A stretch of 14,600 bases of DNA, taken from UHGV virus genome UHGV-0201016, one strand, 5' to 3'. How positions within the stretch are numbered: the stretch's first letter is position 1; each line of letters starts with the position of its first letter. Under the pieces are notes generated by a model. It was given only the letters and a program-made list of their open reading frames with translations, did no database searches and was not told the origin of the DNA. The position numbers and the translations under genes were made by a program. The stretch is from a virus. Shown in pieces: positions 1 to 13,630 of this stretch.

Positions 1-946
1 ACGGTAGTTTGTCTGCCGCAGTGGCAAGGCCTGCCAGTGCGGTCAGTGTGGCGTCGGCAGGTTGTTTTCCATTGGCAAGGTCATATACAGCCTTCACGGC
101 TTTTGGTGTGGCAGCCTGCGTTTCTGACGTGCTGTTAGTGGCGCTGCTGAGCTGGACAAGGCCTTTTCGCGCTGTGGTCGCGTCCTGTGCGGTATATTTC
201 CCGTTAGCAAGGTCATATGCTGTCTTTACCGCCTTTGGCGTTGCCGCAAGCGTTTCAGAATCGCTGTTGGTGGCGCTACTGAGCTGGACAAGACCTTTTC
301 GCGCTGTGGTCGCGTCCTGTGCAGTATATTTCCCGTTAGCAAGGTCATACGCGACCTTTACCGCTCTCGGCGTTGCGGCCAGTGTTTCAGACGTGCTGTT
401 GGTTGCGCTGCTTAACTGAGTAAAACCTTTTGCGGTCAGCGATGCATCCGGGTGTCGTCGTGACTGTTCGTGTTCTGAGATTTTGTCATCCACATATTTA
501 CGGGTCGCCAGTACCACCGACGGGTCGATTTTCAGCGTGATGGCTTCGGTATTCGAGACAACCAGAATCATGCGGATAGTCTGGGTACGACCACTGCCTT
601 CCTGCAACTGCGGTTTGTACGTTTCCGGGCAGTTCGCCACCGCAATGAGTACGCCTTCATCATCATAAAGCCCAATCTCACGGATCCAGAATCCTCCCTC
701 GTTTTCAGGGATGATTTGCTCCGCAATAATCTGGCTCTGATTGTTAGGGTCAACACTCAGAAGATTCAGCGGTGCAATGCGTTTCTGGTTAATCAGTTTT
801 GTCTGTGCCGGGTCTGGTGTCGGTAATACACCATTCGCATCACCAACGGCCATTTGCGTCAGATTCAGCTTACTGCCGAGCATCGTCGCGTTAGCCAGTC
901 GTGCTGCGCCCTGATTAGTCAGAATGGCGTAGTATTTCACTGTCAT
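1..946 (-). CDS. H: Phage tail fibre protein, N-terminal 315 codons (P2 gpH-like); 3' end lies beyond the window start
   Basis: ATG at 946-944 overlaps the TGA stop of the upstream gene (ATGA). Hand translation of the minus strand is open for all 315 codons down to position 1 (MTVKYYAILTNQGAARLANATMLGSKLNLTQMAVGDANGVLPTPDPAQTKL...EHEQSRRHPDASLTAKGFTQLSSATNSTSETLAATP...). It is absent from the ORF track because there is no in-window stop. Confidence 0.85.
   Translation of the reverse strand, partial: MTVKYYAILTNQGAARLANATMLGSKLNLTQMAVGDANGVLPTPDPAQTKLINQKRIAPLNLLSVDPNNQSQIIAEQIIPENEGGFWIREIGLYDDEGVLIAVANCPETYKPQLQEGSGRTQTIRMILVVSNTEAITLKIDPSVVLATRKYVDDKISEHEQSRRHPDASLTAKGFTQLSSATNSTSETLAATPRAVKVAYDLANGKYTAQDATTARKGLVQLSSATNSDSETLAATPKAVKTAYDLANGKYTAQDATTARKGLVQLSSATNSTSETQAATPKAVKAVYDLANGKQPADATLTALAGLATAADKLP
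60..425 (-). repeat. About three tandem copies of a 132-bp (44-codon) in-frame repeat inside the tail fibre gene
   Basis: Copies at about 66-197, 198-329 and 330-425 are near-identical on direct comparison. On the minus strand they encode repeats of LSSATNS(T/D)SETLAATP(K/R)AVKxAYDLANGKYTAQDATTARKGLVQ; on the plus strand they produce the spurious repetitive ORF 9-419. Confidence 0.8.
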
Positions 947-1554
947 GCGTTTACTCTCAGGTTATCAATTAAATGAATGACCGAGGCCGGGAAATAATCC
1001 CCTCCGACAATAATGGCCTCCGGGGTGTAGGGATAAACCGTCAGGGCGTCACCGTGATAGCATCCCGTTCCGGCAAAAATGTTGCCGGTTGTACTTAAAC
1101 TGATAGCCAGTCCCGTCAGATGGCGGCTCGCCGGTTTTGCATCAGCAACGAGACGTTCCAGCTCCAGATACATTTCTTCGGTAATACCCTGCTCAAGCAC
1201 GCCAACAACGATACGGAACGTCCCCGGCTCCTCGTTGAGCTGCCACCACTCCCTCACTTCAATCAGATAGCCGAGCGGCTCCACAACACGCCGGATTGCG
1301 CCGACAGTACCCTTATGACAGTGGATGAAATAGGCATCGCGGATAACGGCGCGTTTTGTCGCTTCCGGCCACTTTTCATCCCACCTGTCGACCGAAAACG
1401 CCCACGCCAGCCACGGCAGCAGATTTGCCGGACAGGTGTCCGGGTTCCACAGTTCACGAATACTGACCGGCGTTTTTTCAATTTCCGCACAGGCTTTTGC
1501 GGCGGCGACTTCAAGCGGTGATGAGCCGGTCGGCAGCAGTCGCGAATCACTCAT
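943..1554 (-). CDS. I: Phage tail/baseplate protein, P2 gpI-like (203 aa)
   Basis: Complete ORF; GGAGG lies 6 nt upstream of the ATG at 1554; stop overlaps the tail-fibre start; position immediately upstream of H as in P2. Family assignment is from recalled similarity. Confidence 0.75.
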   Translation of the reverse strand: MSDSRLLPTGSSPLEVAAAKACAEIEKTPVSIRELWNPDTCPANLLPWLAWAFSVDRWDEKWPEATKRAVIRDAYFIHCHKGTVGAIRRVVEPLGYLIEVREWWQLNEEPGTFRIVVGVLEQGITEEMYLELERLVADAKPASRHLTGLAISLSTTGNIFAGTGCYHGDALTVYPYTPEAIIVGGDYFPASVIHLIDNLRVNA

Positions 1555-1674
1555 CCGAGCCTCCGGTCACGACGTGGTATTCGGTACAGAAAGACGCCTG
1601 CGTACTGTTGAGCACGATACCCGTTCTGGTCGGGTGAACTGTTCAACCGGGGACGCGCCAGCGCCGCCGAACGT

Positions 1675-2514
1675 GTGGAAATCGACGTCAGTCATAACGC
1701 CCTTGCCGGTGGTCTTCTCTGTGCGGACGGCCAGTGGCGGCAGATTGTCACCATTGAGGACGCCCTGAAAGGCGGCTGCACACTGTTCGACATTGAGCAG
1801 CTCAAACGTGAAAACAGCGCCGACGATTTTAAAAACCTGTTCATGTGTGAATTTGTTGACGACAAGGCGTCGGTGTTCCCGTTCGAGGAGCTGCAACGCT
1901 GCATGGTCGACACGCTGGAAGAATGGGAAGACTATGCGCCGTTTGCCGCGAATCCGTTCGGCTCCCGCCCGGTATGGATTGGTTACGACCCGTCACACCG
2001 TGGCGACAGTGCCGGATGCGTGGTGCTGGCACCGCCGGTGGTGGCCGGTGGCAAATTCAGAATACTTGAGCGTCACCAGTGGAAAGGCATGGACTTTGCC
2101 ACCCAGGCGGAATCCATCCGCAAACTCACCGAAAAATATAACGTTGAATACATCGGTATTGATGCCACCGGCCTCGGTGTCGGCGTGTTCCAGCTCGTGC
2201 GCTCGTTCTATCCCGCCGCGCGCGACATCCGCTACACGCCGGAAATGAAAACCGCAATGGTGCTCAAGGCAAAAGACGTTATCCGCCGTGGCTGTCTGGA
2301 ATATGACGTCAGCGCCACCGACATCACCAGCTCGTTTATGGCTATCCGCAAGACCATGACCAGCAGCGGACGCAGCGCCACCTATGAGGCCAGCCGCAGC
2401 GAGGAAGCCAGCCACGCCGACCTCGCCTGGGCGACCATGCACGCCCTGTTAAATGAGCCACTCACCGCCGGTATCAGCACCCCGCTGACATCCACCATTC
2501 TGGAGTTTTACTGA
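1675..2514 (+). pseudogene. P: Terminase large (ATPase/nuclease) subunit, P2 gpP-like, 3' fragment only; 5' part deleted
   Basis: The frame opens only after the stop at 1609-1611 and the first start codon is GTG at 1675, giving at most ~300 codons against a recalled ~590 for gpP. The fragment contains a nuclease-like region (PVWIGYDPSHRGDSAGCVV). Its stop overlaps the portal start (TGATG, 2512-2516). The upstream space is occupied by gpI on the other strand. Confidence 0.7.
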
Positions 2515-3548
2515 TGAGCAAGAAAAAAGGGAAAACACCGCAACCTGCGGCAAAAACAATGACCGCCAGCGCCCCGAAAATGGAGGCATTCACCTTTGGT
2601 GAGCCGGTGCCGGTACTCGACCGCCGTGACATTCTGGATTACGTCGAGTGCATCAGTAACGGCAGATGGTATGAGCCGCCGGTCAGCTTTACCGGTCTGG
2701 CAAAAAGCCTGCGTGCTGCCGTGCATCACAGCTCACCGATTTACGTTAAACGTAATATTCTGGCTTCAACGTTTATCCCGCACCCGTTGCTTTCCCAGCA
2801 GGATTTCAGCCGCTTTGTGCTGGATTTTCTGGTGTTCGGTAATGCGTTTCTGGAAAAGCGCTACAGCACCACCGGTAAGGTCATCAGACTGGAAACCTCA
2901 CCGGCAAAATATACCCGTCGTGGCGTGGAAGAGGATGTTTACTGGTGGGTGCCGTCCTTCAACGAGCCGGCAGCCTTCGCGCCCGGCTCCGTGTTTCACC
3001 TGCTGGAGCCCGATATTAATCAGGAGCTGTACGGCCTGCCGGAATATCTCAGCGCCCTTAACTCTGCCTGGCTGAATGAATCGGCCACGCTGTTCCGCCG
3101 CAAGTATTACGAAAACGGCGCACATGCCGGATACATCATGTACGTCACCGATGCCGTGCAGGATCGCAACGATATCGAAATGCTTCGCGAAAACATGGTT
3201 AAGTCGAAAGGCCGCAACAACTTTAAAAACCTGTTTCTCTATGCCCCGCAGGGGAAAGCCGACGGCATTAAAATTATCCCGCTCAGTGAAGTGGCAACGA
3301 AGGACGATTTTTTTAATATCAAAAAAGCCAGCGCCGCTGACCTGCTGGACGCGCACCGCATCCCCTTTCAGTTGATGGGAGGCAAGCCGGAGAACGTCGG
3401 GTCGCTGGGTGATATTGAGAAAGTGGCAAAGGTCTTTGTCCGCAATGAGCTTATCCCGCTACAGGACAGGATCCGCGAGATAAACGGCTGGCTCGGTCAG
3501 GAGGTCATCCGCTTTAAAAACTACTCACTGGACACTGACAACGGCTGA
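2514..3548 (+). CDS. Q: Phage portal (capsid vertex) protein, P2 gpQ-like (344 aa)
   Basis: Complete ORF translationally coupled to the terminase fragment; basic Lys-rich N-terminus; length and position (last gene before cos, about 170 bp from the cohesive-end sequence) match P2 Q. Confidence 0.85.
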   Translation: MSKKKGKTPQPAAKTMTASAPKMEAFTFGEPVPVLDRRDILDYVECISNGRWYEPPVSFTGLAKSLRAAVHHSSPIYVKRNILASTFIPHPLLSQQDFSRFVLDFLVFGNAFLEKRYSTTGKVIRLETSPAKYTRRGVEEDVYWWVPSFNEPAAFAPGSVFHLLEPDINQELYGLPEYLSALNSAWLNESATLFRRKYYENGAHAGYIMYVTDAVQDRNDIEMLRENMVKSKGRNNFKNLFLYAPQGKADGIKIIPLSEVATKDDFFNIKKASAADLLDAHRIPFQLMGGKPENVGSLGDIEKVAKVFVRNELIPLQDRIREINGWLGQEVIRFKNYSLDTDNG

Positions 3549-3553
3549 ACATC

Positions 3554-3575
3554 GCCGCCTGCGGGCGGCTTTTTT
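3554..3575 (+). terminator. Rho-independent terminator downstream of the portal gene
   Basis: GCCGCC (3554-3559), loop TGCG, GGCGGC (3564-3569), followed by TTTTTT (3570-3575). Confidence 0.55.
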
Positions 3576-3717
3576 ACGCCCCCGTCATCACGCCCTCACA
3601 CGCTCATCACCGCACAAAAAATCCCGCAGACACACCAACGCCCAGCAGGCCAAGTAAACGCCTTCACGACGCGCTCAGACGCTGAAAAAATAAAATCAGC
3701 ACCACCGCCAGCGCGCA

Positions 3718-3736
3718 GTGCTTTCCCCGCCTCGCC
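3718..3736. other. cos cohesive-end sequence, P2 type (19 nt)
   Basis: gtgctttccccgcctcgcc is the reverse complement of GGCGAGGCGGGGAAAGCAC, the 19-nt P2 cohesive end as I recall it. It lies between the portal gene and the cargo operon, as in P2 (Q - cos - old). Confidence 0.7.
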
Positions 3737-3865
3737 CGCCCGCTTCATGGGTCGATTTTAATGCAGTTGCATTTTTATCGAAAGTCTCGTCTCACAAAAC
3801 CCTCCCTTCACTAAATAGACTCATTATCCACATGCAATCTAATTCAAAAAAATGCATGTATAGTA

Positions 3866-5836
3866 TTAAAGGTCATCAATTAAACCTAAAGGCAAACCGT
3901 CCTCACCAACCGAGCTATAATGAGCGATAATATTCGAAAGTTCACCAGTAGAAAACGAATTAGGCAAATCATTATCAACTAATATAATCTGGCACGGAAC
4001 ATTTTTTCTTTCTGCTTTTTGAACTGTATTCAATAGTTGTTCATAAATATTTTGATACTTCATCGGATCTGACATTCCCTCAAGGTCATCCTCGACTGCA
4101 AGAGTTTCTTTTGAATATTTTTCCTTGGTCTGTTTCCCTAAATATTTGCCAACCGTATCAAATATCAAAAGTAAAGGATGGTTAACATTATGATCTATTG
4201 CATAATCAAGAATAGACAAAAGATACCCAATAGAAGAAATAGTTCTCAAACCTCCGGATGTTATTTTAAAATATTCTTTTTCTCTTATAACAGGAATGTA
4301 ATAGCTTTCAGAGATTTTTATCCCCGTTCTGTTTTTGATATTAATACCCTTCAAATACTGACTAAATCTATCACCCAAACCTTGTAAAATGCCCTCCATG
4401 CTAGGTGCGTTTTTCTTTAACGCCTCCAAGCGTTCAGTTAATGCTTCAATATCTTTTCTCAGTACCTGATACTTTTCAAGCAGTTCCTCTTGCTGGTTTC
4501 TAACCTTCAAATCTTTTACTAACTGCTCCCTAACCTTCTCATTTTTTGATATCTCTTTAATATAAAAATCTCTCTGAGTCAAGAATGGTGTAATCATTGA
4601 CTGGCTTTCTTCGTCAATCAATTCTCTCAACTCGTGAAGTCGTTCATCTAATTCTTTTTTATAACCTGATTCTTTTTTTAATTTAAATGACATTTCTGAG
4701 ATCATGTCATTAATATTTCGTCTACGTCGACTAAGTGAATTCAACTCTTCATTAAGATCTTTTTCTGATGAAATTTCAAATGGAAAATCAGAATCATCTA
4801 TTTTAATGTGGCTATCACAGATTGGACAGGAAAATACTTCCTTATCCAATACACCAATGCGAGAATTTGCTGTTTTAATCGCTTTGAGTTTTTCAATATC
4901 ATTATCATAGTCATTTTTTAACCGCGAATATTTATCAATCTTATCCTCAAGCGCACTAATATTTAATATGCACTCTTTGTATTTAAGCGAAATAAAATTG
5001 TGAGCATCTTTAAATTCTGTATACTGTATGGAATCCGCTTTCATATTTTTATCGAGAGCAGACAAACCTGCAACAAGTTCTTCTAAAACAAGATCTATCC
5101 TATTAATCTCATCATCAATTGATTCAATTGTTTCATAGTCTGTATCGCGAAGAAATTCAGATATTATCTGATACTTCCTATTTAATTCCGTTACTAAACT
5201 ACTTTTTGCAGATATTTCACCTTGGAGTCTGGCGATGCTTTCATCCAACACATTGAACATGTATTTAAAAACTTCTTTCGTAAATGCGTAGCGGGACCAA
5301 TCACCCAATCGCAAGAAAGATTTACTACCAATATCATCCTGACTTACATAAACAAATTTATATATATTTCTAAAACTTAACCTGCGCATCTGTGAATGCG
5401 CTTTAGAAGGAGACACCTTAATTTCAATCTTTGGGAAATTAAGACTATCAAGTAAAAACTCCGAAAAAACACCATCAACATTTGATAATGGGCTATAATT
5501 AGGAGCGTATTTTTTCGGAAAATGTTTATGTAAATCATCAAACTTACAACGATAAACTTCTATTGCTTTTTTATGATCATAGATATCTCTTACGATTGTG
5601 AATACAGTATCATTGATCACTACTTCAAGAGCAGCATAGTTTACTGATGTTTTTATTTCATCTGCTAAATCTATAGAGCTAGCACCTAAAAGATAATTAA
5701 TAAACTCCAGAATGCTTGACTTACCTGTGTCAGAGTCTCCGTAGATAACATTGAGACCTTTATAAAAAGTAGTGACGTAGTTTTTACGAACACCAACAAG
5801 AATCAAACTATTGATATTGAGATATGATTTCATCAT
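3866..5836 (-). CDS. SMC/Rad50/RecN-like ABC ATPase with long central coiled coil and a CxxC motif (LmuB-like position)
   Basis: 656-aa ORF. Walker A GDSDTGKS (aa 33-40, nt 5717-5740); about 300 aa of heptad-like charged sequence; CPIC at aa 337-340 (nt 4817-4828) near the middle of that region; ABC-signature-like ITSGGLRT (about aa 523-530); Walker-B-like HPLLLIFDT (Asp560 followed by Thr, not Glu). N-terminus resembles RecN/RecF/SMC heads. Confidence 0.75.
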   Translation of the reverse strand: MMKSYLNINSLILVGVRKNYVTTFYKGLNVIYGDSDTGKSSILEFINYLLGASSIDLADEIKTSVNYAALEVVINDTVFTIVRDIYDHKKAIEVYRCKFDDLHKHFPKKYAPNYSPLSNVDGVFSEFLLDSLNFPKIEIKVSPSKAHSQMRRLSFRNIYKFVYVSQDDIGSKSFLRLGDWSRYAFTKEVFKYMFNVLDESIARLQGEISAKSSLVTELNRKYQIISEFLRDTDYETIESIDDEINRIDLVLEELVAGLSALDKNMKADSIQYTEFKDAHNFISLKYKECILNISALEDKIDKYSRLKNDYDNDIEKLKAIKTANSRIGVLDKEVFSCPICDSHIKIDDSDFPFEISSEKDLNEELNSLSRRRRNINDMISEMSFKLKKESGYKKELDERLHELRELIDEESQSMITPFLTQRDFYIKEISKNEKVREQLVKDLKVRNQQEELLEKYQVLRKDIEALTERLEALKKNAPSMEGILQGLGDRFSQYLKGINIKNRTGIKISESYYIPVIREKEYFKITSGGLRTISSIGYLLSILDYAIDHNVNHPLLLIFDTVGKYLGKQTKEKYSKETLAVEDDLEGMSDPMKYQNIYEQLLNTVQKAERKNVPCQIILVDNDLPNSFSTGELSNIIAHYSSVGEDGLPLGLIDDL

Positions 5837-6345
5837 TTCTCCTTGAAAACTTGATTTATAACAGAGTTTAACTTAGAGGTAGGCAATGCTTGTAGCGGTA
5901 ACAATGCTTCGGATAGTCGTTTTATTTCTTTAAAATATCCATCAGTCAATGAGCTAGCAAATTCCTTACCTTTTTCAGATAAAAATAATTTAACACTCTC
6001 ATTATTTTTTTTCTCAGCTGAGAGCAATCCCCGCAATGACATAATTTTTATAAGATATTTCACTTTGGAATTGTCGAATAAGATATCTACATTTGATGAA
6101 AAACTCTTTATTGTATAAGTTAACTGGGACTCGACACAAGCAGGCTTTTTCCCCGAAATTGTAAGAGCATAATCAATTTTTGATGGGTTTTTTATCAGAT
6201 ACATAAAAATTTGTATTTTATTAATATCTAATGATAACACTCCTTTTTTGCTATGAGATAATATAGATATAGCAATGGCAAGCATAGCAAAATTCAAGCT
6301 ATACTCTTCATCAAGAGGAATATACGGCAAGTTATTTTTCTTCAT
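5833..6345 (-). CDS. Small protein of unknown function (170 aa), middle gene of the three-gene operon (LmuC-like position)
   Basis: Complete ORF. Its start overlaps the stop of the hydrolase gene by 14 nt, and its TGA overlaps the ATG of the ATPase gene (ATGA at 5833-5836). No recognisable motif. Confidence 0.55.
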   Translation of the reverse strand: MKKNNLPYIPLDEEYSLNFAMLAIAISILSHSKKGVLSLDINKIQIFMYLIKNPSKIDYALTISGKKPACVESQLTYTIKSFSSNVDILFDNSKVKYLIKIMSLRGLLSAEKKNNESVKLFLSEKGKEFASSLTDGYFKEIKRLSEALLPLQALPTSKLNSVINQVFKEK

Positions 6346-7555
6346 GATTACCTCGCCGTAATTGCTCCAAAGTTTCTACGCTGGTTTCAGATGACCAGAC
6401 AATATCTCTATCATTTTTGTTAGCCAGTTGATGCAACATTCCTTTCTTATGTATCGTTTCTAAACTTTTTATAAGAGAATCTAACGACGACTTATCCTCT
6501 TGGGCTATTCGTCTATGAACAGCAGCAATAAATTTATCTGGGGAAATTGAATTCGCGATATATTGCTCATACTCTTCCTGGTAAATCTCCCTTATTTTAG
6601 AATACAAATGACCAAGTAGTTTCCTATCGTAATCACTCGTAAAAATATTTCTCGCAAGCTCAGCATTATAATAATATTCCTTTGCATGCATAGCGATATC
6701 CTGATGTATATCTGCGACAATCATTTTTAAGACGAAATACTCATTATCATATTGTTTCTCATCAGAAAAACGCTCAACACATATCTTCTTGGGTGCTTCT
6801 AAATTTATCTGCTGAATAAATTGCTTTACCGCAACAAACACTGTAGACGAGCTGTTTTCGGGCTTGCAAATTGAGCTATGCCCTTCATTAACTGCAATTG
6901 AGTTATTTCGTTCACTATCCATCGGTAATGCGCTTTTTTTATCAACTATAGTGTCATGAGAACCATAAACATATCTAGTGATAGGAAGTTTTTTGCTACA
7001 ATTTATCCAGCGCCTATTCAATGTATCAGTCGCTTCACTTAACAATCCAAGATCTACTAACTGAGCATTTGAAGATACCATTGAAGTTATATTCGCCAAT
7101 TTAGCACCAAAGTGAGGGACTGCTAACGAAATGAATCCAATTATATTAGATTGTTCCTCATGCTCAACTTTTTTTAGAATTAGATTTTTTGATATTAACC
7201 CCCCCATACTATGGGCAATTATTATAATTCGAGAGTAATCACTTAACGTTACCCTAATCTCAGTATACAATAACTCAGCTATTTCATCAGTTGGTAAATT
7301 TCTCTCTAACTTATTTTTCTTAGAGAAAATACGAGCCAATAATCCTGACGTTTTAGCATACGTTTGTGTAAATTTGGTGAAATAGTTGAAACATGCAATA
7401 TCAAATACATTGCCAATGTCTTCATCTTCTGCTAATAGTTTTGGAAATGAAGTTTCTTTATTAAAGTTCCATGTTTCCAAACCACCATTTAATCCATGTA
7501 CAAATAGTATCAGGCTATCTTTTTTCTCGTGGCTTATCCATTCAACCATGCTCAT
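6332..7555 (-). CDS. Alpha/beta-hydrolase (lipase/esterase-type) fusion protein with a C-terminal all-helical domain of unknown function; candidate effector of the defence operon (LmuA-like position)
   Basis: 407-aa ORF. LILFVHGLNGG (HG oxyanion region); nucleophile elbow IIIIAHSMGGL with the Ser codon at 7208-7210; candidate acid GSHDTIVD; candidate His NEGHSSICK. Residues ~250-407 are charged and helical with no catalytic motif I recognise. AT-rich codon usage. Its last 14 nt overlap the next gene. Confidence 0.7.
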   Translation of the reverse strand: MSMVEWISHEKKDSLILFVHGLNGGLETWNFNKETSFPKLLAEDEDIGNVFDIACFNYFTKFTQTYAKTSGLLARIFSKKNKLERNLPTDEIAELLYTEIRVTLSDYSRIIIIAHSMGGLISKNLILKKVEHEEQSNIIGFISLAVPHFGAKLANITSMVSSNAQLVDLGLLSEATDTLNRRWINCSKKLPITRYVYGSHDTIVDKKSALPMDSERNNSIAVNEGHSSICKPENSSSTVFVAVKQFIQQINLEAPKKICVERFSDEKQYDNEYFVLKMIVADIHQDIAMHAKEYYYNAELARNIFTSDYDRKLLGHLYSKIREIYQEEYEQYIANSISPDKFIAAVHRRIAQEDKSSLDSLIKSLETIHKKGMLHQLANKNDRDIVWSSETSVETLEQLRRGNHEEK

Positions 7556-7603
7556 ATGCTTTTCTGCCGTGTATAAAAATTAAACCATAACAAACAATTC
7601 CTC

Positions 7604-7620
7604 AACAATAACATATTGTT
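7604..7620. promoter_or_regulatory. Inverted repeat AACAATA-N3-TATTGTT in the AT-rich intergenic region upstream of the cargo operon
   Basis: Perfect 7-bp arms with a 3-bp spacer, 50-65 bp upstream of the operon start (7555) and just downstream of the A stop; all-AT stem, so more likely a protein-binding site than a terminator. Confidence 0.3.
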
Positions 7621-7644
7621 ACCCCGTTTGACCGTTCTTTTCAA

Positions 7645-9927
7645 CTACCACTCACGCTGTCTGTCAAAAAAGTCGATATCGTTATCAAATTTAAAACGCT
7701 TATGCCCAAAATCCAAAACAGCTCCGCGAGCGAGAGCTTCAAGCTCCCAATAACTAGCCTGAATGTCACTTTGTGCAAGAAGAACCTTAATTTTCGGGAT
7801 AGTCTTTCTCTCCTGTCTTGTCAACCGGGCGGATGGGGCAGGAAAGTAGCTTCGACCATTGAAAGGGGTAAAGCTCTGCTGTGAACGATTACTGCATTTC
7901 AGTTCATTACTCAATAAGTCTCTAAGTACCTTCATAATGCCTGGCTCGGTCCAACTTAGAATCCCTTCATCTATTAAATTTAACACCGCTGCAGCATGCT
8001 CAGTCGGTGTGGGTGCCGGTAACGAAGTATCACCACCGTTGAGCTTTCCACAGTTATTGACAGGACTCCGAGGCGCGGCGATGCCGCTTTTTAAAGTCAA
8101 AGGCTCAACGACCGGAACTTTCGGCACAATGCGCCAGTCCGTCGTTCTGGTGATATGAATATGACGCGCGCCGAGATGCGGCGCGTAAATGCCGACCACT
8201 CTCTCGACTTCTTCCTCGTACTCGTTAACTTCATCCGACGGGCTACGGGCGACTCTGACAGTCTGACAATCGCGCGGAACATTTGCCCCACCCTGCGCGC
8301 TGATATACAACGCAAAATCACCACTGTCTGCGGCGGCGCGTGCAGCCTCGACGCGCTCGTCAAACTCATCAGCAATGCTGACGCCGCGCGGCAATTTGCG
8401 TAGTTCACGGTAAGCCCCCATTGTCGGCAGGCCAACCGTTTTAAATTGCGGGATGCGCCACGTTGACGCCCATGCGGTAACAGCCGCTGCAGTGTCTTTC
8501 AGCGGCCTGCCGGTGTCGTTATCGAGCTGACCATCCAGTGCATAGCCGTCGATGTTTTTTGAAATGTATTTCGCGATATATCCCGCAGCACCGCCCCGGT
8601 TAAGGTGTTTTGCCTGAAAACGGTTTCGCGCGGCTCCTCTTTCGTCGCCATCCTCTTTGAGCGCATAGCGACGCATGATTTCGATAATCTGGTTACGCTG
8701 GCGTGAATTACAAAAAAGCATCATATGCCAGTGCGGCGTTCCGTCGTGGTGTGGCTCGACGACACGCAAACCGTAGACCTGTAAATCATTATCCTTGAAT
8801 GCCGTGCGCATCAGGCTCCAGATACGGCAGAGATAACGCTGCGCATCCTTTGGATTAAATGCCTCATCGTTCCAGCCGTGATTAAGCTGCACGGTTTTAC
8901 TTTCGCCTTTTCCTACCTGACGTGTCGGGTGATACTTTGACGGCGCGGTCAGCGTGATAAACATCCCCACATCACCCTCTGCAGCGGCGTAACGCTCAAT
9001 ACCGGCAATGGTGTTCATCAGCTCCATCCGGCGAATTTCAGGATTAGAAATACTGCCCATCACCTTACTGATAAGGTCGATGCGCTCGCCGGTTTCCCTG
9101 TTTTCAAGGTCACACGATTTAAGAAATTCCAGATTTGCCTGGCGGCGCGCACGCACATCACGAATGGCGTGTTTACTGGCATAAGGAGAACGGTCTTTAT
9201 TGACCTCCCCGACAGCTATTAGTAACGCTTCATGCCAGCGCATACGCTGGCCTTTAAGCTGATGAGTCCACCACTCATCGTTAAACAGACGGGCAATGGC
9301 AGAATATGCCTGCCTCGTGGTCATCTGCCCTTTACGGTATTTTTTCCAGTAGAGCGGGGAAATATTGAAAGCACGTGCAGCGCCAGCAACATGACCATAG
9401 AGGTGAGCCTGCGCCTCATCCGTAAACAGCGATTCTTTTTCGCCATGCGCATCCACCCAGGCATCGCTGAGTTCCTCATACATCATGAAAAGCTGCGATG
9501 AGATACGGGCAGCAAACTTTTTCAGCTCCTTGTCATTCATTCCCGGCAGGCGCGCATAGTGGTCACGCTCTGCCAGAAACAGTAACGACGCGTCGGTGTT
9601 CATTTCATGGCGCTGATTCACACGCTCAATGCGCGGCCATAAACGACGCTGAAAAGTGGATGTGAGGAAATAAAACCCGTGCACCGGGCTTTTATTGCGC
9701 CGGATGTAGTCATAGCGTGAAGTAAACAGCGAGCGCAAAAAGTAAGGCAGGCGGTTAATCGTGGATAAAACACCTTGCACCTGATGCATCTCGTCACGTG
9801 TAAGGGGTCTTTCGCGCCCGACGGCCTCGCGTGGCGCGTTCCATGCATAAGCACCGGTAAACGCCTTACCGGTGCCTGCAGCAAATGCTGACGGAGGGAC
9901 AAAACGCCCGGAGGCTTTAACGGCCAT
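7645..9927 (-). CDS. A: Replication initiation protein, P2 gpA-like HUH rolling-circle endonuclease (761 aa from ATG at 9927)
   Basis: HUH motif PHWHMMLF and tyrosine motif GYIAKYISK are visible. The track ORF begins at TTG 9969; the first ATG is at 9927, giving 761 aa, the recalled length of P2 A. Confidence 0.85.
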   Translation of the reverse strand: MAVKASGRFVPPSAFAAGTGKAFTGAYAWNAPREAVGRERPLTRDEMHQVQGVLSTINRLPYFLRSLFTSRYDYIRRNKSPVHGFYFLTSTFQRRLWPRIERVNQRHEMNTDASLLFLAERDHYARLPGMNDKELKKFAARISSQLFMMYEELSDAWVDAHGEKESLFTDEAQAHLYGHVAGAARAFNISPLYWKKYRKGQMTTRQAYSAIARLFNDEWWTHQLKGQRMRWHEALLIAVGEVNKDRSPYASKHAIRDVRARRQANLEFLKSCDLENRETGERIDLISKVMGSISNPEIRRMELMNTIAGIERYAAAEGDVGMFITLTAPSKYHPTRQVGKGESKTVQLNHGWNDEAFNPKDAQRYLCRIWSLMRTAFKDNDLQVYGLRVVEPHHDGTPHWHMMLFCNSRQRNQIIEIMRRYALKEDGDERGAARNRFQAKHLNRGGAAGYIAKYISKNIDGYALDGQLDNDTGRPLKDTAAAVTAWASTWRIPQFKTVGLPTMGAYRELRKLPRGVSIADEFDERVEAARAAADSGDFALYISAQGGANVPRDCQTVRVARSPSDEVNEYEEEVERVVGIYAPHLGARHIHITRTTDWRIVPKVPVVEPLTLKSGIAAPRSPVNNCGKLNGGDTSLPAPTPTEHAAAVLNLIDEGILSWTEPGIMKVLRDLLSNELKCSNRSQQSFTPFNGRSYFPAPSARLTRQERKTIPKIKVLLAQSDIQASYWELEALARGAVLDFGHKRFKFDNDIDFFDRQREW

Positions 9928-10192
9928 ATGAGCCAAAAGCCTCTGAACAACGCCTGCTGAGTTGCTCAACCTGCGCGTTTAAATCAGCAAAAGACTTTGC
10001 GCTTCCGGTCAGAATATCGTGATGCATCAGGCCGGAAACGAGCTGGCTTAATTTCGGATAATAACCAACCACCGCCAGCCATTCCTGACCGGCGTTTTTA
10101 CCGCTTTCCGCTCTCTTTTTCTCGTGGAGAATAAACTGAAAGCTGTCACTGGTAACGACATAACGTTCGCCAATTTCAATACGAATACTCAT
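9917..10192 (-). CDS. Hypothetical early protein (P2 orf83-like position)
   Basis: 91-aa ORF in the chain of start/stop-overlapping genes between B and A; no motif recognised. Confidence 0.55.
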   Translation of the reverse strand: MSIRIEIGERYVVTSDSFQFILHEKKRAESGKNAGQEWLAVVGYYPKLSQLVSGLMHHDILTGSAKSFADLNAQVEQLSRRCSEAFGSYGR

Positions 10193-10413
10193 GCCGTTCT
10201 CCGGTAATGTTTGTTTTTTGCTTCAAAGACTGACTGGCAGGAAACACAACGCGTGGCTGACGGATAAGCCGCACGACGGGCAGCAGGTATTGGCGCGTCA
10301 CACTCTTCGCAAACCAGCGCAGAAGCACCGCAATGTTTTACCCTTGCCGCGTTAATCTGACGCTCCAGTAATTCAGCCTGTTGTTCCTGAATAAAATCTA
10401 CGTTGTCCGGCAT
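10189..10413 (-). CDS. TraR/DksA-family C4 zinc-finger protein (P2 orf82-like position)
   Basis: 74 aa with CEEC-x17-CVSC (Cys-x2-Cys-x17-Cys-x2-Cys) and a preceding helical segment, as in F-plasmid TraR. Confidence 0.75.
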   Translation of the reverse strand: MPDNVDFIQEQQAELLERQINAARVKHCGASALVCEECDAPIPAARRAAYPSATRCVSCQSVFEAKNKHYRRTA

Positions 10414-10718
10414 TACCAGCTCCTTTTGTCGTTAAGTTTTTTAAATTCATCAGCGCAATAGCTAGCAATTTCTGTCGTTAATTTCGTCAGTTCATCCACG
10501 GAGGAGATTTGCTTGTGAAATACAGCGCGTTTAACAAGTAAATTGACCACATCAGACAGGAGATTTAATTCGTTCTGATAAATCGCGATAACAGACTCAG
10601 TTATTTCGCGTTTTTCTTTATCAAGACCAAGTTGAATAAGAGATAAATCGCCATTTTTCATAACAGCGATTTTTAAGGCGTTATTCAGTAATACAACTGG
10701 ATGAGAACAGGACATCAA
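10413..10718 (-). CDS. Hypothetical early protein (P2 orf81-like position)
   Basis: 101-aa ORF; stop overlaps the next start; no motif recognised. Confidence 0.55.
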
Positions 10719-10939
10719 AGCACCTCCCCGCGAGATAATCCGATATTGTGAAATTTTTCCGACTCCTGACTGAGCAGCTCGACTATCTCCACGCGGGATA
10801 ACTCCGCCTTTGTGATGTGGCGAATCATGGCGTCAAGATGAGAAGAAAAGCGCGTCGCTGCGTCGGCCTGTGCTTCGGTTCTGGCCTGTTGCAGCAGTAA
10901 TGCGTATTTACCGCACTGATTTTCAGAAACTGTATGCAT
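10715..10939 (-). CDS. Hypothetical early protein (P2 orf80-like position)
   Basis: 74-aa ORF with ATG at 10939 and 4-nt overlap with the downstream gene. Confidence 0.55.
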
Positions 10940-11002
10940 GACTTTCTCCAGGCAAAAAGAAGCCCCGCACGATTAAGTGCGTTAAAAACTCTGGTTAATT
11001 AC

Positions 11003-11503
11003 TTAATGCAGATATTGCTCTGGTTTTACCGACGTCAGAATTGTCGGTGCATACTCAAACAGACTGAATAATTCACGTAACGCACGGAATAAAGCATCAC
11101 GCCAGTAACATGACTCTTCATTAATTCGCCAGTATGGCTGGTTGAATTCTTTTTCAGTCAATCCGGCATGCATAAATAAAGTACGGCGCTGACTGACAGT
11201 TAAAAAGCTAATATATGCATACTCACTTGCACCGACCTGACGGCGTTTTGAGAATGCCCCACGCAGTTCATCAATTGCACAAACCAGCCGTTCACGTTCG
11301 ACGTCGTTCATTTCTTCAAAACGCATCGTTGCGTGACGCTGTTTTAACTGCGCATGGAAGCAAACCGTTAGCCGTTCACGTTCCATCATCTGATTATAAT
11401 AATCGCATGTATCCTGCCAGCGAGGGACGGCCAGATGCTTACCAATTATCCGGCGCATAGCTGCTGGCTGTTTTTCAACAAGATTGAGCGTCATCACTGT
11501 CAT
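11003..11503 (-). CDS. B: Replication protein, P2 gpB-like (166 aa)
   Basis: Complete 166-aa ORF in the position and with the length of P2 B, between the orf78-like ORF and the small ORF cluster. Confidence 0.7.
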   Translation of the reverse strand: MTVMTLNLVEKQPAAMRRIIGKHLAVPRWQDTCDYYNQMMERERLTVCFHAQLKQRHATMRFEEMNDVERERLVCAIDELRGAFSKRRQVGASEYAYISFLTVSQRRTLFMHAGLTEKEFNQPYWRINEESCYWRDALFRALRELFSLFEYAPTILTSVKPEQYLH

Positions 11504-11736
11504 TTCCAGACCCTCCGGCTTTTCAGAAAGGTCAGAGCCTTATTTAACGGACTCTGTTTTTTGGTGCGGATAATGATTCCCTTACGCCCCTTACCGTGGG
11601 TAATGGTGAAGTCAATCGCCCTTGGGCTTTCGTTACGCAATAACTGAGCAATACAACGAGGCTCGTTCATCCTTTCCACCTTAAGCCGCACGGCCATGTC
11701 TTGATTTGCTGTAACTAATGCGATTTTTCCAGTCAT
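11500..11736 (-). CDS. Hypothetical protein (P2 orf78-like), start uncertain
   Basis: The track ORF starts at 11760; the internal Met at 11736 gives 78 aa and less overlap with the upstream gene; 4-nt overlap with the B start. Confidence 0.45.
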   Translation of the reverse strand: MTGKIALVTANQDMAVRLKVERMNEPRCIAQLLRNESPRAIDFTITHGKGRKGIIIRTKKQSPLNKALTFLKSRRVWK

Positions 11737-12037
11737 GCCATTCTGTCGGAGCTTCATCAACTAGCTGGGCTGCGTACTTGTCCCACTCACGGCGATTAAT
11801 CCATAACTCAGCATGACCGCCCGGCTTTAATGGGTCCGTCATATAAAAGGCTGGTAACTTGCCTGCTTTCGCCATTTCAGCAACAGCGCGAGGCGTCTTA
11901 CCGATGTAAAGAGCAAAACCCTCTTTCGAGAGCAAATCCGACGGTGCGGCTGCAAGTTTGATGTCACATTTTTTACTTTTTGTGAGATCAGATACTTTTT
12001 CTCCAACATCGTTATTCATTTCTGATCCAATACTCAT
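11681..12037 (-). CDS. cox: Cox-like excisionase / early-promoter regulator (HTH), start uncertain
   Basis: HTH-like segment FALYIGKTPRAVAEMAKAGKLPAFYMTDP resembles the P2 Cox / 186 Apl family. The track start is TTG at 12067; ATG at 12037 has GAGG 8 nt upstream. Confidence 0.6.
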   Translation of the reverse strand: MSIGSEMNNDVGEKVSDLTKSKKCDIKLAAAPSDLLSKEGFALYIGKTPRAVAEMAKAGKLPAFYMTDPLKPGGHAELWINRREWDKYAAQLVDEAPTEWHDWKNRISYSKSRHGRAA

Positions 12038-12141
12038 TTTGATATCCTCAACTTTGGTGCCATTCAACCAGAGCTATTTGAAGCCGCTCTGCGTTGTTCT
12101 GGTGTGTCGCATACAACATAAATTACGAGATACGACAATTC
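12038..12141. promoter_or_regulatory. Immunity switch region between divergent cox-like and C-repressor genes (expected site of early and repressor promoters and operators)
   Basis: 104-bp intergenic region between divergent regulators. Only weak sigma70-like hexamers (for example TTGTTC-N17-CATAAA toward C) could be picked out by eye; no element is resolved. Confidence 0.35.
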
Positions 12142-12453
12142 ATGTCAAATACACAAATCACATCTCAAGCAGAGAAACTCGCACTTATTCGGGAATCAGA
12201 AAGAATGACAAGGAAGCAAGTTGCTGAATTAACTGGAATTAACTACAACACCTATGCTGGATATGAGCAGGGAAAAGTAAAGATGTCTTTTGACGCAGGT
12301 ATGAAATTTTTCAAGCCAGAAAGATTTCGCAAGTACCGTGACTGGTTCATGTTTGATGAAACTGATCCCGCTGGCGGACAAATAGCCCCGGCGCTCGCGC
12401 ACATTGGGCAAGACTCAACAACCTTGCACCACTCAGACCAAAAGACTGGCTGA
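12142..12453 (+). CDS. C: Immunity repressor, P2 C-type (Xre-like HTH), 103 aa
   Basis: HTH segment RKQVAELTGINYNTYAGYEQGK. The track start at 12094 is TTG; the first ATG (12142) gives about 100 aa, as for P2 C. It lies upstream of and co-oriented with int, as in P2. Confidence 0.75.
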   Translation: MSNTQITSQAEKLALIRESERMTRKQVAELTGINYNTYAGYEQGKVKMSFDAGMKFFKPERFRKYRDWFMFDETDPAGGQIAPALAHIGQDSTTLHHSDQKTG

Positions 12454-12546
12454 CGATTTATTCAGCATATGTGTGCAGTAAATGTACGAAAGAAAATTGC
12501 ATTAATTTTCAAGTAGTAGAAGTAAACAGCGTCATCGGAGGGCTTT

Positions 12547-13542
12547 ATGTCTATTAAAAAGCTCGATGATGGTCGTTATGAAGTGGACGTCAGACCGCAG
12601 GGTGCAGATGGAAAACGTATCAGGCGGAAATTTAAAACTAAAGGTGAAGCTCAAGCATTCGAACGTCATGTGCTGGTTAACTACCACAACAAAGAGTGGC
12701 TGGAGAAGCCAGCCGACCGCCGAACTCTTACAGAGTTGTTAGGCAGATGGTGGATATATCACGGAAAATCACATGAGCGTGGAAATATTGAACGGGGGCG
12801 TTTGACGACAATAATCGCCAAATTTGCAGAAATGGGAGTGTCCAGAGCTGACCAGTTAACAAAGAAAACGATAACTGATTATCGAGTTGTAATGATGAAC
12901 GATGGTCTAAAACCAGCCAGCGTAAATCGGCATCTGGCAATAATGAGCGGGATGTTCACCAAGTTAATTGACGCCGGTGAATACCACTCTCACAACCCGT
13001 TCCGTGAGGTTAAGCGGTTACGTGAAGCTGTTACAGAAATGGCTTTTTTGTCCAGTGAAGAGATTACGCGGCTGTTATCCATGCTTGATGGTGATGAGTT
13101 AAATGCAACTCTGGTCTGCCTTTCTACTGGTGGACGCTGGAGTGAAGTGTCTAATTTGAAAGCTGAACACATCATTAACCAGATGGTTACGTTTATGAAA
13201 ACTAAAAACGGAAAGCGCAGGACAATTCCCGTTTCGCAGGACCTGATTAAAAGGATCAAGACCAAAAATTCAGGCAGGCTTTTTAATGCCAGTTACTACA
13301 AAGTGCGTAACGCTCTCAGGGAAGTAAAACCCGATTTACCTGACGGACAAGCAGTACATGTTTTGAGGCATACATTTGCCACACATTTTATAATGAATGG
13401 AGGTAACATAATCACATTGCAGCGCATCCTGGGTCATTCTAACATTCAGCAAACTATGACCTACGCACACTTTGCACCGGATTTCTTACAAGATGCTGTG
13501 ACTCTTAACCCGGTGTCAGGAATGTCCATAATGCGTCCATAA
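12547..13542 (+). CDS. int: Tyrosine integrase, P2 Int family (331 aa)
   Basis: GGAGGG lies 5 nt upstream of the ATG. Catalytic-box motifs HVLRHTFATHF and TMTYAHF are present; the N-terminus MSIKKLDDGRYEVDVRP is typical of P2/186 integrases. Confidence 0.9.
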   Translation: MSIKKLDDGRYEVDVRPQGADGKRIRRKFKTKGEAQAFERHVLVNYHNKEWLEKPADRRTLTELLGRWWIYHGKSHERGNIERGRLTTIIAKFAEMGVSRADQLTKKTITDYRVVMMNDGLKPASVNRHLAIMSGMFTKLIDAGEYHSHNPFREVKRLREAVTEMAFLSSEEITRLLSMLDGDELNATLVCLSTGGRWSEVSNLKAEHIINQMVTFMKTKNGKRRTIPVSQDLIKRIKTKNSGRLFNASYYKVRNALREVKPDLPDGQAVHVLRHTFATHFIMNGGNIITLQRILGHSNIQQTMTYAHFAPDFLQDAVTLNPVSGMSIMRP

Positions 13543-13630
13543 ACCAGAGTTAACTAGAGCCAATTGAAGCGATATGAGTAATTTAACTAATTGTAATACA
13601 ACAGAAAATACCGCTACGGCGGGGGCTACC
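13543..13630. other. attR junction region (phage/host boundary), core not resolved
   Basis: This 88-bp interval separates the int stop from the first codon with recognisable PflA homology. The P2 attP core is not present, so the element has a different site specificity. Confidence 0.35.

Follow-up and report, generated by a model that had tools for sequence, protein, structure and literature searches.

The AT-rich island between cos and gene A in the 14,600-nt stretch of UHGV virus genome UHGV-0201016 analysed here (hereafter the window) is, judging from its sequence, very probably an intact short (type II) Lamassu/ABC-3C anti-phage operon of the lipase-effector class, carried as accessory cargo in the gpA-gpQ (tin/old) hotspot of P2-family phages. 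Cassette and slot are both ordinary and already known: Rousset et al. 2022 (PMC9122126) report the gpA-gpQ defence hotspot of P2 prophages, catalogue the lmu cassette, include WP_000063136 (the LmuA of TW14359) in their locus table and clone the copy from E. coli REL606 as pFR106 ('Hydrolase + SMC').

Positions 3773-7644 have 32.9% GC against 55% and 53% in the backbone on either side (GC fraction: 0.554 over 1-3772, 0.329 over 3773-7644 and 0.533 over 7964-10000), placing the cassette ~20 GC points under the backbone. Windows of 200 nt averaged 0.329 in the island (n = 19, maximum 0.375) and 0.505 in the flanks (n = 51; Mann-Whitney, p = 2 × 10−10), while GC3 of all three cargo genes lies at 0.27-0.29, against 0.66 for Q and 0.55 for the A core. 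The fall on the left starts ~25-40 nt beyond the cos 19-mer and the steep step on the right lies at the A stop (7645), followed by an A tail of intermediate composition (GC 0.442, GC3 0.425). Sliding-window GC and the GC3 comparison confirm the trough between cos and the A stop proposed by the sequence-only reading.

Table 1 Features of the cassette and its flanks in the window.
Feature	Coordinates	Strand	Evidence
Gene Q (portal protein), conserved left backbone	2514..3548	+	Pfam Phage_portal 1.9e-13
Terminator hairpin after Q, P2 tQ equivalent	3554..3569	+	GCCGCCTGCGGGCGGC then TTTTTT
cos cohesive-end 19-mer	3718..3736	-	exact match to GGCGAGGCGGGGAAAGCAC
Conserved cos-flanking block, cargo side	3737..3772	.	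common to phages with all cargo types (alignment)
(A/G)TGCA repeats, fixed +94 to +125 nt from cos	3830..3862	.	kept regardless of cargo
lmuB, SMC/Rad50-like ABC ATPase, 656 aa, CPIC zinc-hook motif	3866..5836	-	PADLOC LmuB 5.1e-235, full length
lmuC, ABC-3C middle component 4, 170 aa	5833..6345	-	Pfam MC4 2.2e-26; PADLOC LmuC 4.1e-52
lmuA effector, 407 aa	6332..7555	-	Pfam CTD8 1.5e-35, DUF676 2.1e-9; PADLOC LmuA 5.9e-109
Candidate lmu promoter, 89-nt A-lmuA spacer	7615..7644	-	-35 TTGAAA 7644-7639; -10 AACAAT 7620-7615
Gene A (replication endonuclease)	7645..9927	-	Pfam Phage_GPA 3.5e-123
Variant 3' end of gene A, last 106 codons	7645..7963	-	no nucleotide homology to P2-type phages
Crossover interval, P2-type A core / cassette-linked A tail	7964..8015	.	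base-by-base alignment

The slot and the probable exchanged unit

Nine P2-family phages share flanks that are 96-98% identical to those of the window and carry unrelated cargo in the slot, which, together with the published hotspot (PMC9122126), upholds the earlier proposal that modules are swapped here at a hot spot of recombination. Cargoes in the slot of other phages include orf91-tin-old, retron Ec48, DUF4238, ParaMORC3+Dcm, a Fic protein, DUF4209, ParB-N plus methyltransferase, and cdtABC.

The left flank is conserved phage backbone. The product of Q has 99% amino-acid identity to P2 gpQ (97% at the DNA level), and P2 has tQ annotated at the position equivalent to the window hairpin (160-181). 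The cos 19-mer, for which 0.01 chance matches are expected, is the annotated cosL/cosR of P2 (NC_001895) and is the same in 8 other P2-type phages. Homology to P2-type phages breaks at 3770-3773 (blastn ends, 7 phages), the end of the cos-flanking block. Farther into the slot, the (A/G)TGCA repeats keep the same position in P2, pro483, phage 899, PhiR44_1, STYP1, T22 phage, Scandinavium and K. aerogenes and are degenerate in pro147, 569R9 and Rouxiella; they are probably part of the functional packaging site.

On the right, alignment of the flank against P2-family phages moved the breakpoint away from the A stop, where the sequence-only reading had put it, an outcome which that reading had itself named as speaking against it. 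P2-type homology resumes only at 7964 in 8 of 9 phages (7978 in the other), and the base-level switch falls within ~7975-8015. This places the breakpoint (7964-8015) ~320-370 bp inside gene A, whose equivalent position in the RefSeq annotation of TW14359 holds a 2283-nt gene. The crossover interval, defined on P2, PhiR44_1, pro483, T22 phage, Scandinavium, K. aerogenes, Rouxiella and O157, is a patch kept in all lineages that encodes EHAAAVLNL. It is consequently inaccurate to say that the cargo alone differs, as the last 106 codons of A are also unlike other P2 phages, with 43% amino-acid identity to P2 in the tail and 98% in the core. Exactly 96 E. coli genomes have the A tail at ≥99% identity; tail and cassette are each found in 96 E. 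coli genomes, in one place each, and stand together in all four genomes examined (TW14359, E. coli B, TOE3, S1-SRB-02-B), indicating at the sequence level that the variant tail travels with the cassette among the 96 carriers. The available parts of Rousset et al. (PMC9122126) equate the slot with the genes flanked by gpA and gpQ, and we found no description of an intragenic gpA breakpoint in them.

This mosaic structure suggests that homologous recombination between P2-family phages brought the cassette in. One crossover would lie inside A at ~7964-8015, ~55-105 bp past the ori nick in the direction of A transcription (the nick maps to ~8069, with coordinates carried over from P2 rep_origin 29892 and window 7964 = P2 29997), and the other at or left of the cos block ending at 3772. 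With crossovers at these two positions, the unit moved would be the A tail plus the cassette and, since the right breakpoint lies inside A and the tail is of P2-family type, the proximate source would be another P2-like phage lineage.

Exchange in the opposite direction is conceivable, yet we hold it to be somewhat unlikely: an old Lamassu-bearing lineage would have had its backbone (A core, Q, P etc.) overwritten by common E. coli P2-type phages, so that what remains of the older lineage is an island made up of the A tail and cassette. Consistent with this, a 97-99% P2-type backbone adjoins a module whose nearest sampled relatives are only 66-87% identical, and the same module sits on several backbones with different integrase and immunity modules. 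However, overwriting needs the same two-junction homologous recombination as import of the cassette, so that the data do not separate the two, and the 98-100% identity of the module across E. coli backbones is explained at least equally well by its recent spread.

The lmuA-lmuC-lmuB operon

The cargo is a three-gene operon on the minus strand, in the order lmuA-lmuC-lmuB, in which lmuC shares 4 nt with lmuB and 14 nt with lmuA. All three products matched their PADLOC models at full length, the MC4 (LmuC) and CTD8 (LmuA C-terminus) matches both exceed Pfam gathering scores, and RefSeq calls the same genes ABC-three component system proteins. For LmuB, the Pfam SMC_N and AAA_23 matches are weak; Walker A G33-S40 (K39), Q166, C337/P338/C340, S527-G-G and D560 are invariant in 36 homologs, and lmuB dN/dS is 0.06-0.07. 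LmuA combines an N-terminal, lipase-like alpha/beta-hydrolase domain with a C-terminal ABC-3C CTD8 domain, and its S116 (AHSMG), D201 and H226 do not vary among 54 homologs. In an AF2 model, the N-terminal domain (pLDDT ~90) resembles serine hydrolases and monoacylglycerol lipases. The C-terminal domain is modelled at low confidence and sequence searches gave no solved structure, so the one line of evidence for its homology to the solved LmuA oligomerisation domain is the Pfam CTD8 match. Overlapping ORFs, invariant catalytic and motif residues, a cassette dN/dS of 0.05-0.07 and the modelled hydrolase fold together indicate an intact operon.

The operon is co-directional with gene A and is probably transcribed from its own promoter right after the A stop. 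The candidate promoter is a weak consensus match (9 of 12), such sites being no commoner in the region than by chance, and its TTGAAA box is kept right after the A stop in Scandinavium, K. aerogenes and Rouxiella.

From the studied Lamassu systems (Vc-Cap4 and Ec-Lipase, PMC12663957; Salmonella LmuACB, 10.1101/2025.03.14.643221; Millman 2022), we infer that an LmuB dimer with LmuC would sequester monomeric LmuA through the LmuA C-terminal domain and detect an invading phage by its DNA ends or replication intermediates. Once released in an ATP-dependent step, LmuA would oligomerise and its Ser116-Asp201-His226 hydrolase would be turned on, presumably against membrane lipids, although this substrate is a guess, and the infected cell would die or arrest (abortive infection).

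The defence role of the window cassette is a prediction, and the cassette may instead not be anti-phage here, being silent or decaying, or acting mainly against plasmids or mobile elements like V. cholerae DdmABC; we regard this as improbable. The REL606 copy, 98% identical, was tested and not validated: in Rousset et al. (PMC9122126), pFR106, whose insert begins at the end of Q, spans cos and extends as far as the A stop, native upstream region included, stands among the 'additional tested systems', outside the validated ones, on an eight-phage panel. Besides, a truncated 522-aa LmuB variant stands for 1,268 database sequences. However, the original authors themselves treat negatives on eight phages as weak evidence, and an induced lipase-class E. 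coli Lamassu protects against lambda-vir (PMC12663957). Decay is countered by the low cassette dN/dS, the invariant catalytic motifs and full-length lmu ORFs in the window, TW14359, E. coli B, TOE3 and S1-SRB-02-B.

Age and source of the cassette

The sequence-only reading took the low GC to mean a donor outside the Enterobacteriaceae, a view we find unsupported. Among the matches listed, LmuA/LmuB relatives at 62-95% identity are all from Enterobacterales, and in Scandinavium, K. aerogenes and Rouxiella the A-cos-Q slot of P2-like prophages holds the same cassette, the Scandinavium prophage giving a single 12.2-kb collinear alignment with the window. Per-gene identity and dS are alike in cassette and backbone, although at dS ~1-1.6, near saturation, their equal age is approximate. 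Related prophages thus display the vertical inheritance that the earlier reading had set against its own proposal, except for the matching composition: the cassette has 32-34% GC in Scandinavium, K. aerogenes and Rouxiella too, and ~40% in a Pseudomonas genome of 68% GC. Because the system is just as AT-rich in such a genome, composition gives no pointer to the donor. These sequence comparisons indicate that AT-richness is a stable property of the Lamassu system and that the cassette is a long-term passenger of Enterobacterales P2-like phages, having diverged as much as the backbone, and not a recent distant low-GC import.

Recent import from a low-GC donor, placed exactly between cos and the A stop, is accordingly very improbable and largely refuted. 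It would account for the compositional contrast, GC3 included, and ~50%-identity homologs are widespread in Gammaproteobacteria. Against it stand the Enterobacterales relatives, the orthologs in the same slot of three other genera with dS equal to that of the backbone, the AT-rich Pseudomonas counterpart and a right breakpoint inside A with a tail of P2-family type; of the listed best matches carrying a source name, none is from a low-GC phylum. Gradual divergence of a fast-evolving region without exchange, suggested by a less constrained A tail (dN/dS 0.22-0.32; 80-95% identity among P2-type E. coli prophages vs 95-99% for the A core), is refuted by abrupt junctions, where a 97% match to P2 gives way to no detectable identity over ~50 bp on each side (7964 and 3772), and by slot genes that are unrelated between phages.

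Relation to known systems

The REL606/E. coli B copy of Rousset et al. (PMC9122126) has the same slot, flanks and three genes, with proteins 98% identical to those of the window; the window prophage differs in that its integrase and immunity module is of pro147 type and that 10 kb are deleted internally. The validated Lamassu Ec-Lipase, a short Lamassu of clade H with a lipase effector and Zn hook (PMC12663957), resembles the window operon in its E. coli host, a lipase-type LmuA with catalytic His, an LmuB with Walker A lysine and Zn hook, and LmuC; it is likened by class and not by sequence, the Ec-Lipase mutants being K42A/H215A (PMC12663957) vs K39/H226 in the window.

The same three-component architecture is seen in the solved structures of V. 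cholerae DdmABC (Lamassu Vc-Cap4) and Salmonella LmuACB, although the window Lmu proteins have no sequence-level match to any PDB chain. A common logic is presumed, in which LmuA is kept sequestered by LmuB2-LmuC and, when DNA ends are sensed, is freed and oligomerises. The effector is a Cap4 nuclease in DdmABC and Salmonella LmuACB, whereas it is an alpha/beta hydrolase in the window operon, and the Zn hook lost in Vc-Cap4 (PMC12663957) is kept as CPIC in the window LmuB. Within the ABC-3C systems of Pfam (MC1-7 plus CTD families), the window LmuC is MC4 and the LmuA C-terminus CTD8, with no difference found; the names ABC-3C and Lamassu type II both designate one type of system. Finally, old/tin of P2 is likewise non-essential lysogenic-conversion cargo in the same position, and Old is also an ABC-type ATPase. 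The P2 genes are, however, unrelated in sequence to lmuACB and are transcribed from the cos side toward A, convergent with it, whereas lmuACB in the window is co-directional with A.

Cargo exchange at the cos-proximal slot

The window follows the P2 map in reverse complement (P, Q, cos, cargo, A, orf83-80, B, cox, C, int), with the cargo of this P2-family prophage lying next to cos, between gpA and gpQ. The sliding-window profile shows a sharp trough, with a GC of 0.329 across 3773-7644 compared with 0.554 in 1-3772 and 0.533 in 7964-10000. All 19 of the 200-nt windows in the trough had a GC of at most 0.375, while the 51 flanking windows averaged 0.505 (Mann-Whitney p = 2e-10). Third-position GC (GC3) shifted in parallel, with 0.27-0.29 in the three trough genes, 0.66 in Q and 0.55 in the conserved part of gene A (hereafter A core). 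Together with the exact cos match, these values confirm the compositional island described in the sequence-only reading. The last 106 codons of gene A (the A tail, 7645-7963) have an intermediate GC of 0.442.

Nine P2-type phages share the flanks with the window at 96-98% identity and carry unrelated cargo in the slot, comprising at least eight different sets: orf91-tin-old in P2, retron Ec48 with a second reverse transcriptase in pro147, DUF4238 in pro483, a hypothetical protein with an exoribonuclease in phage 899, ParaMORC3 with Dcm in PhiR44_1, a Fic protein in STYP1, DUF4209 in 569R9, ParB-N with a methyltransferase and DUF3850 in 12474III, and cdtABC in T22 phage. The proposal of a cargo swap at the tin/old locus is thereby borne out, at a hotspot that is already published, with 1,650 gene arrangements among 18,150 E. 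coli loci as counted by Rousset et al. 2022 (PMC9122126).

The (A/G)TGCA repeats beside cos are kept across P2-type phages whose cargo is unrelated, and in other genera as well, and reappear beyond a cargo-specific spacer; in the window they immediately adjoin the lmuB stop codon. A TTTTAATGCAG block stands at about +20 from the cos end (3737-3772 region). Repeats and block are probably part of a packaging site that extends into the low-GC zone. The ATGCA repeats, ~95-125 nt from cos, suggest that packaging sequence runs into what appears to be cargo, which could be of use to specialists.

Features of the cos-proximal region and its flanking genes in window coordinates
Feature	Coordinates	Strand	Description
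Q	2514-3548		backbone gene
cos	3718-3736	minus	P2 cohesive-end 19-mer GGCGAGGCGGGGAAAGCAC, exact match; equals annotated cosL/cosR of P2 NC_001895
(A/G)TGCA repeats	3830-3862		two to four copies, ~10-11 nt spacing, fixed +94 to +125 nt from cos end
lmuB	5836-3866	minus	656 aa; Pfam SMC_N, AAA_23 weak; PADLOC LmuB 5.1e-235, residues 2-656
lmuC	6345-5833	minus	170 aa; Pfam ABC-3C MC4 2.2e-26, 93 bits vs cutoff 28; PADLOC LmuC 4.1e-52
lmuA	7555-6332	minus	407 aa; Pfam DUF676/PGAP1/Abhydrolase_1 residues 10-208, ABC-3C CTD8 residues 265-389 (1.5e-35); PADLOC LmuA 5.9e-109
A	7645-9927		backbone gene

Breakpoints and the tail of gene A

On the left, homology with seven P2-type phages stops at 3770-3773, ~36 nt past cos. 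On the right, it restarts inside gene A, at 7964 for eight phages and 7978 for pro483, and base-level alignment places the switch within about 7975-8015, where every lineage has a conserved patch. The right boundary had been set at the A stop (7645) and was therefore off by ~320-370 bp. Breaks in eight of the nine phages first suggested 7964 as a universal hotspot border, which we rejected on comparison of the gpA tails. Because the other phages share one A-tail type, differing only in the last 5-15 codons, 7964 reflects the window lineage's own crossover. The window A tail differs across all 106 residues and is 43% identical to that of P2, compared with 98% for the A core.

The window-type A tail was found in 96 of 5,426 complete E. 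coli genomes, in one place each and at an identity of at least 99%. The whole cassette (lmuA-lmuC-lmuB) was present in 96 complete E. coli genomes as well, with 99.0-99.8% identity in the 25 records listed, and tail and cassette occurred together in the four genomes examined. Taken together, the breakpoints, the counts and the co-occurrence indicate that the exchanged unit spans 3773-7963, i.e., the cassette plus the A tail. An analysis that takes the hotspot to comprise the genes lying between gpA and gpQ would miss part of the exchanged segment, namely the last 106 codons of A.

Among complete E. coli genomes, the A core (8020-8340) matched 1,861 places at 95-99% identity and the P2-type A tail 1,730 places at mostly 80-95%, showing that the 3' end of gene A is generally much more divergent than the adjoining core in E. 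coli P2-like prophages. The dN/dS of the A tail was 0.22-0.32 versus 0.08 for the A core, and pro483 carries its own A-tail variant, which switches near 8045. In the core gene beside the hotspot, diversity therefore increases just past the origin nick of P2 (29892), which coordinate transfer places at about window 8069. At 8075-8087, at most ~10 nt from the mapped nick, a GC-rich hairpin precedes a run of T (GCGGCGATGCCGC TTTTT) and may belong to the structure of the origin. The prophages of K. aerogenes (loci L013 and L014, 1891-4279) have a gpA called as 684 aa and a 334-nt gap before lmuA; tblastn still finds tail-like sequence there, and the A tail may be frameshifted or truncated.

Relatives, carriers and origin of the module

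Protein searches showed that the closest LmuA/LmuB relatives all belong to Enterobacterales, with approximate identities of 92% in Citrobacter, 86-87% in Klebsiella aerogenes and Scandinavium, 86% in Enterobacter, 83% in Salmonella, 79% in Pantoea, 74% in Buttiauxella, 72% in Rouxiella, 63% in Serratia and 62% in Yersinia; relatives in Pseudomonas and other Gammaproteobacteria stand at about 50%. The genome-contig scan returned three loci because it is sensitive to close relatives only, and the wider spread is known from the protein searches. P2-like prophages of Scandinavium hiltneri, K. aerogenes and Rouxiella chamberiensis carry the cassette in their A-cos-Q slot, oriented as in the window. 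The Scandinavium prophage matches window 1618-13822 in one 12.2-kb alignment at 77% identity (cassette 81-85%, backbone 72-80%). At the protein level, Lamassu and backbone identities were 86-87% and 78-83% for Scandinavium, 85-87% and 79-84% for K. aerogenes, and 63-72% and 62-71% for Rouxiella, respectively. Synonymous divergence from Scandinavium and K. aerogenes was similar for the cassette (dS 1.0-1.6) and for the A core plus Q (1.4-1.9), with a cassette dN/dS of 0.05-0.07; in the Rouxiella comparison, dS was saturated for lmuA and lmuB. Cassette GC was 0.32-0.34 in all four enterobacterial hosts and about 0.40 in Pseudomonas entomophila, where the backbone has 0.68.

The shared slot, a divergence like that of the backbone, the low dN/dS and the constant low GC together argue that the cassette has long travelled with the P2 family under selective maintenance and that its AT-richness has not ameliorated. 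The Lamassu-lipase cassette has apparently co-diverged with P2-like phages in at least four enterobacterial genera while staying at ~33% GC. A recently acquired island from a low-GC donor outside the Enterobacteriaceae, along the lines of the sequence-only reading, which took the low GC to point outside that family, is rejected: the nearest relatives are enterobacterial, the same slot is occupied in three genera, and the low GC follows the system across every host, Pseudomonas included. The low GC of the cassette carries no information on a recent donor, and a recent foreign origin of defence cargo should not be deduced from its low GC.

Within E. coli, one module, 98-100% identical, is found on several kinds of backbone, including prophages with different deletions. 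In the carriers O157:H7 TW14359, TOE3 and E. coli B, the integrase is of the P2 type (337 aa) and lies beside yegR/yegS. Window 10400-13650 (cox, C, int; 331-aa integrase) is of the pro147 type, with 7964-13645 being 98.7% identical to pro147, and one defence module thus rides different integration modules. A deletion junction lies at 1618, where 1118-1618 aligns to P2 12629-12129 (gene I) and 1618-3736 to P2 2117-1 (the 3' part of P, then Q); lacking ~10 kb of genes for head, lysis and tail, the window prophage is defective. Of the other cassette carriers, S1-SRB-02-B, TW14359 and TOE3 are intact around this site and E. coli B has a different deletion; the junction of the window had no match among the complete E. 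coli genomes of the collection. At the other end, phage homology stops at about 13645-13651, and the next ORF (13574-14371), radical-SAM / 4Fe-4S activase-like, is presumably a host gene. The alignment of the Scandinavium locus continues to 13822, its own end, and suggests an integration neighbourhood shared with the window. No tRNA was found at the prophage end or anywhere in the window.

The window is a mosaic: its backbone is of the E. coli P2 type (97-99% identical to P2), and its module has a Scandinavium/Klebsiella-type A tail. Such a structure implies homologous recombination between P2-family phages; the direct partner is absent from the sampled phages, and the transfer may have run in either direction. 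A bolder idea, which we consider improbable, is that cargo exchange in the P2 family is a replication- and packaging-coupled "end swap". The cargo forms the terminal segment of the linear genome, between the gpA origin nick and cosR; with the cargo in that terminal position, a single crossover just past the origin would suffice to replace A tail and cargo, and the universal cos end would serve as the second boundary. Two independent tail switches, that of the window (about 7975-8015) and that of pro483 (about 8045), are located near the nick. If true, the end swap would account both for the position of the P2 and P4 hotspots beside cos and for the increased diversity of the 3' end of A. In a weaker variant, the stable AT-richness of the cassette, or the linked A tail, would be functionally selected, for example by keeping a toxic effector silenced or by keeping the carrier's rolling-circle origin from triggering Lamassu.

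The Lamassu operon and its published counterparts

The trough is filled by three minus-strand ORFs that overlap by 14 nt and 4 nt and form a compact operon, with the same gene order in four other genera. Each PADLOC match is essentially full-length, and both Pfam (MC4) and PADLOC identify LmuC as the middle component of type II Lamassu. RefSeq names the identical genes "ABC-three component system protein", "ABC-three component system middle component 4" and "AAA family ATPase". The architecture predicted for LmuA from Pfam and PADLOC is an N-terminal effector domain followed by an ABC-3C C-terminal domain. On its alpha/beta-hydrolase fold, LmuA has an Sm-x-Ser-x-Sm nucleophile elbow and a Ser-Asp-His triad, with A-H115-S116-M-G-G, D201 and H226 invariant in an alignment of 54 homologs down to 43% identity. 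The AlphaFold2 model is confident for the N-terminal domain, whose Foldseek matches (E about 1e-7, probability 1.00) are serine hydrolases and monoacylglycerol lipases; the C-terminal domain has a pLDDT of 35-73, too low to set beside the solved LmuA tetramers, and its fold check therefore failed. No PDB chain matched LmuA or LmuB in sequence searches at E <=0.01. The "lipase" label follows the naming of DefenseFinder and PMC12663957, and an attack of LmuA on membrane lipids is a guess from the fold.

LmuB has the features of an SMC/Rad50-like split ABC ATPase, with Walker A G33-S40 (GDSDTGKS, K39), the Q-loop Q166, the signature S527-G-G and D560 invariant in 36 homologs. A central coiled coil with a zinc hook is predicted from CPIC at 337-340 (C337, P338 and C340 invariant in 36 homologs) and from NCBIfam SMC/Rad50 models aligning to residues 195-515; the CxxC hook is kept in Lamassu clade H and has been lost in some other clades. 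On the strength of the Pfam and PADLOC matches, the conserved motifs and the hydrolase fold of LmuA, the cargo is a short (type II) Lamassu of the lipase-effector class. The lmuACB operon is intact, with all family motifs, and all three genes are under purifying selection.

At LmuB residues 555-561, an invariant Walker B-like aspartate (LLLIFD560) is followed by an invariant Thr561, at the position equivalent to the catalytic glutamate of canonical ABC ATPases. A second invariant acidic block, V620-D-N-D623, lies downstream of D560. One LmuB relative (P0005), a 522-aa protein 99% identical to that of the window and without the C-terminal ATPase half, stands for 1,268 database sequences from E. 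coli that bear the name "exonuclease SbcC". Truncation of lmuB may be common in some lineages. In TW14359, E. coli B, TOE3 and S1-SRB-02-B, lmuB is full length. Upstream of the operon, a TTGAAA box directly 3' of the A stop and a TAAnAAT-like box ~18 nt downstream are present in four genera, a cross-genus conservation that is the basis for proposing a candidate lmu promoter; a promoter/terminator consensus scan of the region showed no enrichment of promoter-like sites (15 found versus 17.5 expected).

Drawing on PMC12663957 and 10.1101/2025.03.14.643221, we infer an LmuA1:LmuB2:LmuC1 complex from which LmuA would oligomerise on release. By analogy, LmuB2-LmuC would keep monomeric LmuA inactive via its C-terminal domain and would detect an invading phage by its DNA ends or replication intermediates, whereupon ATP-dependent release would let LmuA oligomerise and switch on the effector, with cell death or arrest as the outcome. 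According to the literature on Lamassu, the function would be phage or plasmid defence via abortive infection, requiring both ATPase and effector. The E. coli Lamassu "Ec-Lipase", of the lipase class, protects against lambda-vir, for which it needs the Walker A lysine of LmuB and the histidine of the lipase (PMC12663957); the residue numbering of Ec-Lipase fits neither the cassette of the window nor P0032, the second type of LmuB in E. coli.

The hotspot and the Lamassu cassette are both already in the literature. Lamassu-family members were seen in these prophage hotspots (Millman et al. 2022), and the supplement of PMC9122126 enters the O157 LmuA (WP_000063136) as "DUF676/PGAP1 + hypothetical + hypothetical". 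The same work cloned the E. coli REL606 P2 hotspot as pFR106 ("Hydrolase + SMC"), whose insert starts at the end of Q, includes cos and reaches the A stop, exactly the segment of the window that holds the cassette. Its Table S2B places pFR106 under "additional tested systems", not among the validated ones. As recorded there, the only published test of the cassette (REL606 copy, native promoter, eight phages) gave no validation, so defence by the window ortholog is putative. Our finding is accordingly a rediscovery of a published hotspot and a catalogued Lamassu cassette, with its main value in the correct annotation, to which the present analysis makes small additions: 1) the co-transfer of the gpA tail, 2) the apparent co-divergence across genera despite AT-richness, and 3) the conserved ATGCA repeats near cos.
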